NCBI GenBank assembly: GCA_947488295.1
Contig: CANKYU010000001.1
Location: forward strand, 854,183 to 918,182
DNA length: 64,000 nt
Reading direction: 5' to 3'
Origin: an uncultured Anderseniella sp.
GTDB lineage: Bacteria > Pseudomonadota > Alphaproteobacteria > Rhizobiales > Aestuariivirgaceae
Part shown: piece after piece, positions 43,020-43,137 of the stretch
Numbering within the stretch: the first letter of the stretch is position 1
Layout of the letters: the number at the start of each line of letters is the position of its first letter
Translations under genes and position numbers: made by a program
The notes under the pieces: generated by a model
Told to the model about the DNA's origin: nothing
Database searches by the model: none
The model's input: only the letters and a program-made list of their open reading frames with translations

Positions 43020-43137
43020 GGCTAGATCAGTATGGTTTTTGACTGAGTCAGTCAAAAACCATAAAACTGATCGCATTCAAAGTGCTAGAGCAACTTTATG
43101 GGTTCAATTGAACCCATGTTGCTCTAGTGTCCCGCCC
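43020..43137. repeat. Intergenic mosaic repeat (RIME-like), copy B: gatcag-[perfect palindrome tatggtttttgactga|tcagtcaaaaaccata]-ctgatc then ctagagcaac-ttt-atgggttca / tgaacccatgttgctctag
   Basis: Shares the conserved second hairpin and flanks with copy A at 31262-31400 while hairpin 1 is a different but equally perfect palindrome; lies immediately 5' of hemF start. Confidence 0.6.

Follow-up and report, generated by a model that had tools for sequence, protein, structure and literature searches.

The described repeats closest to the one analysed here are Bru-RS1 and Bru-RS2 of Brucella (Halling & Bricker 1994). In the sections of the literature cited here, they are portrayed as multi-copy, intergenic sequences of 103-106 bp with two palindromes (PMC2266754, PMC3163539, PMC10800456, PMC2267715). 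The corresponding sections on IS711 give a length of 842 bp, two overlapping ORFs, duplication of TA at YTAR and a preference for Bru-RS1/2 (PMC2266754, PMC3163539), and they assign this insertion sequence (IS) to the IS427 group of the IS5 family, with Bru-RS as its preferred landing site (PMC2266754, PMC3163539, PMC10800456). In rhizobia, RIME1 and RIME2 (Osteras et al. 1995) are, according to the cited part of the source, intergenic mosaic elements of approximately 100 bp that contain large palindromes and reach tens to hundreds of copies (PMC2573895).

The repeat described in this study lies in front of the hemF gene in a 64,000-nucleotide stretch of DNA from an uncultured Anderseniella species (hereafter the window). 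The most probable interpretation, to which we assign a probability of roughly 0.8, is that this copy (copy B) was inserted recently and represents a non-autonomous, MITE-like mobile repeat of the Bru-RS/RIME type, 106 bp in length, that targets the TA in (C)TA(G). Comparable elements are known from more distant bacteria. RUP of Streptococcus pneumoniae and the Correia/NEMIS elements of Neisseria are non-coding MITEs of about 107-158 bp that are present at high copy number and duplicate TA, and RUP is believed to depend on an IS630-family transposase acting in trans. The RUP and Correia elements form hairpins, are often located at or within promoter regions and can alter the expression of their neighbours. 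REPs are shorter (20-40 nt), carry a conserved GTAG-type tetranucleotide, are linked to RAYTs and are not known to duplicate their target.

Copy B is a complete two-hairpin element at positions 43022-43127 (plus strand), as delimited by a profile HMM, by alignment and by comparison with hemF alleles that lack the element. In an nhmmer search with a profile of 93 copies, it matched model positions 1-106 at E = 9e-32. It is bounded by CTAG on both sides (43022-43025 and 43124-43127), and its parts follow in the order CTAG-ATCAG-(hairpin 1)-CTGATC-gcattcaaagtg-CTAGAGCAAC-TTT-ATGGGTTC-AATT-GAACCCAT-GTTGCTCTAG. On the basis of RNA folding and covariation, hairpin 1 (43025-43072, plus strand) has GATCAGT/ACTGATC as its outer clamp, together with an AAA bulge of 3 nt, an inner stem of 14 bp and the loop AGT. 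The fold and the alignment place an unpaired spacer, gcattcaaagtg (43073-43084, plus strand), between hairpin 1 and hairpin 2 (43085-43127, plus strand), the latter being formed by CTAGAGCAAC, the TTT bulge, ATGGGTTC-AATT-GAACCCAT and GTTGCTCTAG. Hairpin 2 has its own CTAG at both borders, and copies that consist of hairpin 2 only exist elsewhere. An earlier, sequence-only reading had recognised in hairpin 1 a perfect 16-bp palindrome, and this is indeed present, with arms tatggtttttgactga (43031-43046) and tcagtcaaaaaccata (43048-43063) around a central g (43047); so is the gatcag/ctgatc clamp that it reported (43025-43030 and 43067-43072), which recurs unchanged in a second copy of the window, copy A (31261-31266 and 31303-31308). 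The same reading had let the element end about 2 nt before the hemF ATG, but the end is at 43127 and the ATG at 43138-43140, a gap of 10 nt. The 10-nt spacer from the element to the ATG, tgtcccgccc (43128-43137, plus strand), is common to lineages with and without the element and contains no Shine-Dalgarno sequence.

Folded as RNA, the region of copy B reaches -62.5 kcal/mol (z = -8.7), and none of 200 shuffled sequences was equally stable. The 106-nt element has no ORF of its own, and a terminator scan found no U-tract after hairpin 2. At gathering thresholds, the sole Rfam matches over the whole window were two tRNAs; when the element was searched at E ≤ 10, the best sub-threshold match reached 15.9 bits, where the gathering score is 80.

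Exactly two full copies, A and B, are present in the window, and they are 85% identical over 108 nt without gaps. Copy A (31258-31363, plus strand), identified by the profile HMM and alignment, belongs to a different subfamily (subfamily 1) from copy B (subfamily 2). It is located between convergent genes: its first TAG (31259-31261) is the stop codon of an SDR gene (30509-31261), and an SPFH gene (31407-32609) follows on the minus strand. Its RNA fold is also very stable (-70.4 kcal/mol, z = -9.5). Hairpin 2 is near-identical in the two copies, as had been noted, with one difference in the loop (a in copy B, g in copy A) and one at the foot of the stem (c in copy B, t in copy A). Hairpin 1 of copy B had been taken for a replacement by another palindrome; however, copies A and B align base for base, and the hairpin is homologous, with compensatory changes. 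Ten of its 48 positions differ between A and B, and eight of these make up four fully compensatory pairs (T:A/G:C, G:C/A:T, T:A/A:T and A:T/G:C), the remaining differences being one T·G wobble changed to C:G and one loop base. The hairpin 1 of copy B is the standard form of subfamily 2.

This maintenance of pairing extends to the family. In an alignment of 93 full copies, the predicted structure is paired in 95.6-95.9% of cells, and changes on both sides of a pair occupy 130 cells, compared with 40 ± 5 in shuffles. Within hairpin 1, 10 of the 14 inner pairs change on both sides, and in slid-register controls pairing collapses to 25-44%; constancy in the inner stem of hairpin 2 is uninformative, because the search pattern prescribed it. 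Much of the covariation signal is accounted for by the two subfamilies, namely subfamily 1 with approximately 50 copies (G10:C45, G21:C31 and T65; including copy A and the copy at locus L091) and subfamily 2 with approximately 30 copies (T:A, A:T and C at the same positions; including copy B). Some pairs are represented by three or four pair types, which points to several independent events. Mismatches of the G·U type (78) and of the A·C type (58) are about equally frequent, indicating that no one transcribed strand is favoured.

An exact scan with the hairpin-2 core, using one genome per species, located the family at no fewer than 111 loci in nine assemblies, and the small size, the absence of coding capacity and the many copies are all features of MITEs. 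A profile search of the same loci yielded approximately 30 further copies, comprising divergent, hairpin-1-only, hairpin-2-only and deletion forms, and the deletion derivatives arose between short direct repeats (L022 versus L051; L107 versus L095). The carrier assemblies among the matches listed are Anderseniella or uncultured alphaproteobacterial MAGs syntenic with the window; L091, for instance, is 80-86% identical to the window over several kilobases. Among the matches listed, the family is specific to the marine alphaproteobacterial genus Anderseniella. The literature search found no paper on Anderseniella repeats. The family is a previously undescribed one of ordinary bacterial mobile palindromic repeats and not a new kind of system.

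The designation 'RIME-like' in the sequence-only reading holds as an architectural analogy only: the two families, compared by description, are both intergenic, approximately 100 bp long, palindromic, modular, alphaproteobacterial and present in tens to hundreds of copies. As to sequence, a blastn search (word size 11) of 72,556 PLSDB plasmids, rhizobial megaplasmids included, gave no match to the element and hence no connection with rhizobial repeats borne on plasmids, and the carriers among the matches listed are Anderseniella assemblies.

Two further observations concern the assemblies themselves. One copy (L066, CAVRBA010000012.1) is on a 283-kb contig binned as 'uncultured delta proteobacterium', which comes from the same sample and has the same G + C content (55.9%) as an Anderseniella-like MAG; mis-binning is more likely than horizontal transfer in this case. 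In addition, the copies in L042, L057, L086 and L111 are located within 100 nt of a contig end, in keeping with the expectation that such a repeat breaks short-read metagenome assemblies.

The hemF gene (43138-44031, plus strand; PF01218) encodes an oxygen-dependent coproporphyrinogen III oxidase of 297 aa. Upstream of it lies a gene for a SpoU/TrmL-type RNA methyltransferase of 151 aa (42519-42974, plus strand), which was assigned from PF00588 and from gene calls in orthologous loci. Close HemF homologues (81-95% identity) are 297-298 aa in length, with few outliers, and start at the same ATG, at 43138 in the window. Their length indicates that the extension of the hemF ORF to a TTG at 43039 is repeat sequence read as protein, and the suspicion that it was an artefact was correct.

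The trmL-hemF regions of relatives, obtained via their HemF proteins, show the site with and without the element (filled and empty alleles, respectively). The trmL-hemF spacer measures 61 nt in 11 related lineages (hemF 82-98% identical at the nucleotide level); in the window it has grown by a net 102 nt to 163 nt. The empty alleles contain a single TTAT, CTAT, CTAA or TTAA (YTAW) 10 nt before the ATG, and the filled alleles read CTAG...CTAG; CTAG at this site is confined to the two filled lineages. The closest relative, a Logan contig (SRR25727013 contig 7688) that encodes an identical HemF protein, is empty: its hemF shares 98.1% nucleotide identity with that of the window, each of the 17 differences being a third-position change, and the upstream 47 nt show no difference. 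The second filled lineage, L091, carries a subfamily-1 copy. Its hemF shares 84.9% identity with that of the window and is closer to those of the empty L115-117 (88.9%); the two filled lineages are not sister lineages. These relationships imply that the hemF site was probably filled by recent, independent insertions in two lineages, one from each subfamily, which is the more parsimonious scenario because the alternative needs several precise losses and a swap of subfamily.

A strongly structured sequence directly upstream of hemF could also be a conserved, gene-specific leader such as a riboswitch or an attenuator. The empty alleles refute this explanation, which retains virtually no probability: the element is absent at 11 related hemF loci, more distant relatives carry an ordinary Shine-Dalgarno sequence there, and at least 111 copies adjoin unrelated genes. 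The earlier proposal of a dispersed intergenic repeat, and not a gene-specific leader, is thereby confirmed. As a separate observation, some distant relatives have an extra gene of 302-311 aa between trmL and hemF (L118 1526-2461, L127 534-1442, L128 511-1440), identified as Lipase_3 in one of them, so that the adjacency of trmL and hemF is not fixed.

As a mobile insertion, copy B would have landed in the YTAW site 10 nt upstream of the ATG, within the conserved 61-nt trmL-hemF spacer. The junction itself reads GGATTAAT in the closest empty allele and GGGCTAG...CTAGT in the filled allele, with three transitions within 5 nt and otherwise identical flanks; thus, a simple duplication at this locus would require three extra transitions. 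Across the family, variation at the ends is limited to the outermost base (C in 83% and T in 12% of copies at the 5' end, G in approximately 74% and A in 15% at the 3' end), while the TA next to it and the inner G and C do not vary among the copies. This pattern is the one expected for the duplication of TA in a CTAG-preferring target, and the element would accordingly insert at the TA of (C)TA(G)-type sites to leave CTAG on both flanks.

Presence/absence polymorphism at orthologous sites is clear, and two other cases fit such a duplication. In the first, L028 reads CTAG...CTAA and its empty counterpart L085 a single CTAA, which agrees with duplication of TA/CTAR. In the second, copy A, element-free SDR orthologues end in ...GRG-TAG within C-TAG-G, and the end of the SDR protein is unchanged in the window despite the presence of copy A. 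One nested insertion in a second repeat family showed no clean duplication, and the element-free counterpart in the window (at about 15245) of the L002 copy was too diverged for its target to be read. At L106 (approximately 2825-2860), an unrelated 27-nt insert is found between two CTAGs (CCTAG-ccgccactattcaggcttgaaagtctt-CTAGG) where L070 (3173-3278) has the element; this insert may represent a footprint or a different occupant of that CTAG site.

With G as its first base and C as its last, the element regenerates a TAG stop codon at either end, and copies can thus sit harmlessly on the stop codons of their neighbours. At the hairpin-1 end, the TAG closes, in frame, an open frame of 100 or more codons in 27 of 62 cases, against 6 and 0 of 62 in the control frames; at the hairpin-2 end, it does so in 17 of 58 cases, against 7 and 7. 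By crude gene calls, 29 of the 93 copies share precisely 4 nt with a neighbour at its stop codon (14 through one of their ends, 15 through the opposite one) and none lies inside a gene; in approximately 31% of the copies, a neighbouring gene takes its TAG stop codon from the element. The tetranucleotide CTAG is 14-fold under-represented in the window (17 occurrences versus 234 expected from base composition), and 5 of the 17 fall in copies A and B. CTAA (19), TTAG (20) and TTAA (25) are likewise very rare, and CTAT occurs 112 times. This scarcity of CTAG would be consistent with targets being largely confined to stop-codon-type sites.

Other parts of the window were considered as possible relics of the family. 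The sequence-only reading had suggested a third, decayed copy at about 53862; this could not be upheld, as the match is an exact 12-mer only (53861-53872) and not above chance, with a mean of 1.4 chance 11-mer matches to the element per shuffled window, and the profile HMM of 93 copies did not detect it even at E = 50. A possible decayed short-form relic, CTAGATCAG...ATGGGGCGAATTGAACC (28618-28650, plus strand), has the first 9 nt of the element at one of the 17 CTAG sites of the window. It starts on the TAG stop codon of a ychF-like GTPase gene (27524-28621), and its ATGGGGCGAATTGAACC resembles the apex of hairpin 2, with a profile E-value of 33, which is not significant. At 38292-38325, the sequence CTAGAACTGATC..CATT..AGTGCT looks, by eye, like the element minus both hairpins (start, 3' clamp and spacer). 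Both candidates are suggestive by eye and not significant by profile.

How such a repeat is moved can be considered from its ends, its hairpins and its orientation. Taken as a whole, the element has only a weak terminal inverted repeat, which matches at 7 of 10 positions (GATCAGGATG versus GAGCAACATG), and hairpin 2 by itself has perfect ends (GAGCAAC/GTTGCTC). The family resembles RUP and Correia elements in being non-coding, abundant and hairpin-forming and in its probable insertion at TA with duplication. In contrast, the terminal inverted repeats of RUP and Correia elements are long and clear and correspond to known or inferred ISs, whereas the agreement here is 7 of 10 and no matching IS was found in approximately 1 Mb of sampled loci; furthermore, the Anderseniella hairpins are internal and side by side rather than made by the two ends. 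We consider the chances about even that the family is moved in trans by a DDE transposase that targets and duplicates TA in YTAR/CTAG, either of the IS5/IS427 group, which is seen in the same genomes, or of the IS630 type. Against this proposal, the internal pairing of hairpin 1, which is kept by compensatory change, is left unexplained.

An alternative hypothesis is single-stranded mobilisation by a Y1/HUH transposase (REP/RAYT or IS200/IS605-type 'PATE') that recognises the hairpins by shape and inserts the element beside a CTAG-like tetranucleotide without true duplication, the terminal CTAG being brought by the element. Two stable subterminal hairpins kept by compensation (130 double-change cells versus 40 in shuffles) would suit such a process, and the similar numbers of G-U and A-C mismatches suggest selection on DNA rather than on a strand-specific RNA; a 'target plus own end' would likewise account for the net gain of 102 nt and for the CTAG on either side. 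However, the symmetric variation of the outermost bases is a better match to TA duplication than to one element-borne end, and the L028/L085 pair fits this alternative in the reverse orientation only. In addition, IS200/IS605-type elements are expected to show an orientation bias with respect to replication, and no such bias was detected: three contigs of uniform GC skew contain 10 copies that run with the replichore and 14 that run against it, and orientation is not associated with local GC skew (Fisher p = 1.0). Orientation was not associated with the gene-strand majority either, and replication direction offers no explanation for an apparent bias within some contigs (6/6 and 10/13). In the 8-kb blocks around the copies, no Y1 transposase came to notice. 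On balance, single-stranded mobilisation is unlikely. The family shares with REP, BIME (PU) and REPIN sequences the character of extragenic mosaic palindromes in which pairing is maintained, often at the 3' ends of genes, but it differs from REPs in its CTAG/TA ends, its palindromes of 43-48 nt and at least two filled/empty pairs that fit duplication.

For the preferred reading, a MITE-like repeat inserted at TA, an autonomous partner was sought as matching ends 0.15-3.5 kb apart around a transposase. In approximately 1 Mb of loci, a small sample, this search found no autonomous IS with ends in which TA is followed by GATCAG or by GAGCAAC. It returned other MITE-like families, and the IS that was seen has termini different from those of the element. 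This IS, 867 bp in length, interrupts two different element copies of one MAG, in each case precisely at the CTAG of the 3' end (L007 2177-3039 and L005 5653-6515). It contains two overlapping ORFs (PF13340 and PF01609), belongs to the IS5 family and has the ends GGTTCAATCGACATTCA / GGTTGAATTGACATTCA. Both IS copies in the sample occupy the terminal CTAG of an element, and at the orthologous site L070 of another genome the element is present and the IS absent. In L007, the start of another TAGAGC-ended repeat was observed directly after the IS.

These observations bring the family close to Bru-RS in several respects. Both are found in the order Hyphomicrobiales, are of similar size (103-106 bp in Brucella, 106 bp here), contain two palindromes and are intergenic and multi-copy; both have YTAR/CTAG ends and a TAGAGC...GCTCTA hairpin; and both are preferred landing sites of an IS of approximately 850 bp from the IS427 group of the IS5 family, with two overlapping ORFs and duplication of TA at YTAR, namely IS711 in Brucella and the 867-bp IS here. 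The Bru-RS copy downstream of bp26 in Brucella likewise folds into two hairpins with a TAGAGC...GCTCTA stem and a terminal CTAG. The two families differ in genus. Homology between them was looked for and not found: when the 93-copy profile was searched with nhmmer against a 20.7-kb Brucella locus with Bru-RS (L129), the best match had E = 1.5 and was not at Bru-RS, and the pairwise alignment was unconvincing.

The apices of the hairpins provide a further point of contact with the IS. The IS terminates on its left in the same 8 nt that form the apex of hairpin 2, GGTTCAAT, and on its right in the 8 nt that form the apex of the subfamily-1 hairpin 1, GGTTGAAT; the chance of a random 8-mer occurring in the element is P = 0.0027. 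The occurrence of IS-end 8-mers at hairpin apices may serve as a lead only. We regard it as quite unlikely that the repeat and the IS5-family IS are partners, be it through hairpin-borne transposase-binding motifs, a safe-harbour landing pad or an unconventional hairpin-dependent movement. If true, such a partnership would explain the compensatory pairing of hairpin 1 without strand or orientation bias, and it would supply a mechanism by which IS711 prefers Bru-RS in Brucella, a preference that has long lacked an explanation.

Among the Anderseniella loci, two further MITE-like families (265/367 bp and 403 bp) share the hairpin-2 terminus, TA followed by GAGC. The first, of approximately 265 bp, carries terminal inverted repeats that are long, covary and begin with CTAGAGC, and it is found at L008 5597-5963, L034 1495-1861, L017 4764-5028, L100 2116-2381, L083, L043, L048 and L082. 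In one genome, several of its copies contain a nested 106-nt element and measure 367 bp, which means that the composite, too, has multiplied. The second, of 403 bp (L112/L113 4654-5056), has terminal inverted repeats matching at 27 of 30 positions and starting with TAGAGCGAG; it is located between two MFS transporter genes downstream of hemF, and a 123-aa 'gene' was called inside it in L112.

The insertion at hemF also bears on the expression of this gene. All lineages of the core clade share the motif cacttcccaaa (42996-43006, plus strand, in the window), which its conservation marks as a candidate -35 element. In the empty alleles, TAWTGT occurs approximately 19 nt downstream of this motif, with 7 more nt before the ATG, and the proposed geometry of a weak hemF promoter is TTCCCA-N18-TAWTGT. 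The segment TGTCYCGCCC-ATG and the upstream motif CACTTCCCAAA are conserved in the core clade, where no Shine-Dalgarno sequence precedes hemF in either filled or empty lineages; in more distant relatives, hemF is preceded by GGGAGG. The element keeps TAGTGT beside the ATG and shifts cacttcccaaa 102 nt further away. A scan for the sigma-70 consensus upstream of filled and empty hemF found no promoter, and a terminator scan found no terminator. From conservation and geometry, we tentatively suggest that hemF might be expressed as a leaderless mRNA from a promoter formed by cacttcccaaa and TAWTGT, in which case the insertion would alter expression either by removing the -35 element or by creating a structured leader of 110 nt; this remains the less probable side of the question.

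Another possibility is that the copy at hemF has been kept because it benefits the host at the RNA level, as a 5' stabiliser, an occluder of translation or a signal for processing or termination between trmL and hemF. REP and Correia elements affect the stability and processing of mRNA, the hairpins here are very stable and end 10 nt from the start codon, and the same site has been filled in two independent lineages. Nevertheless, the absence of the element from 11 of 13 related lineages, the closest included, indicates that it is dispensable for hemF function. Across the family, orientation is not biased with respect to transcription (19 co-oriented and 18 anti-oriented copies between tandem genes, 14 in convergent and 12 in divergent spacers). 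There is, moreover, no U-tract terminator, no Shine-Dalgarno sequence to occlude and no Rfam match. A function of this kind is therefore very unlikely.

Several further features of the window were observed alongside the repeat. Two adjacent tRNA genes are located at 33065-33211 (minus strand). Between petA and a cupin gene, an ORF of 153 aa (41486-41947, minus strand) has no Pfam match and a low GC3 of 0.57; the relatives L112-L126 have approximately 260 nt only at this site, and the region looks like a lineage-specific insertion. A different repeat family is represented at 57560-58070 by two direct repeats of approximately 90 nt. Both contain a pair of short hairpins rich in G+C (...catccccgtgaaaacggggatg... 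and ...catcctcgggcctgtcccgaggat...), and between the two repeats lies a stretch of approximately 300 nt with a small minus-strand ORF.

For annotation, our comparative analyses fix the start of hemF at 43138 and identify the upstream ORF extension as repeat sequence. They also flag the family as a breaker of short-read Anderseniella assemblies, and the presence or absence of its copies is usable as a strain-level marker. The stop-codon-regenerating ends allow the repeat to adjoin genes without harm. At hemF, near-identical strains that differ by a 102-nt structured insertion, placed between a conserved motif and a start codon without a Shine-Dalgarno sequence, constitute a natural experiment in which one could measure directly how such repeats act on a putatively leaderless promoter. 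Finally, the insertion of an IS at the CTAG of the element parallels the relationship between Bru-RS and IS711, which suggests that this association may be more general in Hyphomicrobiales.
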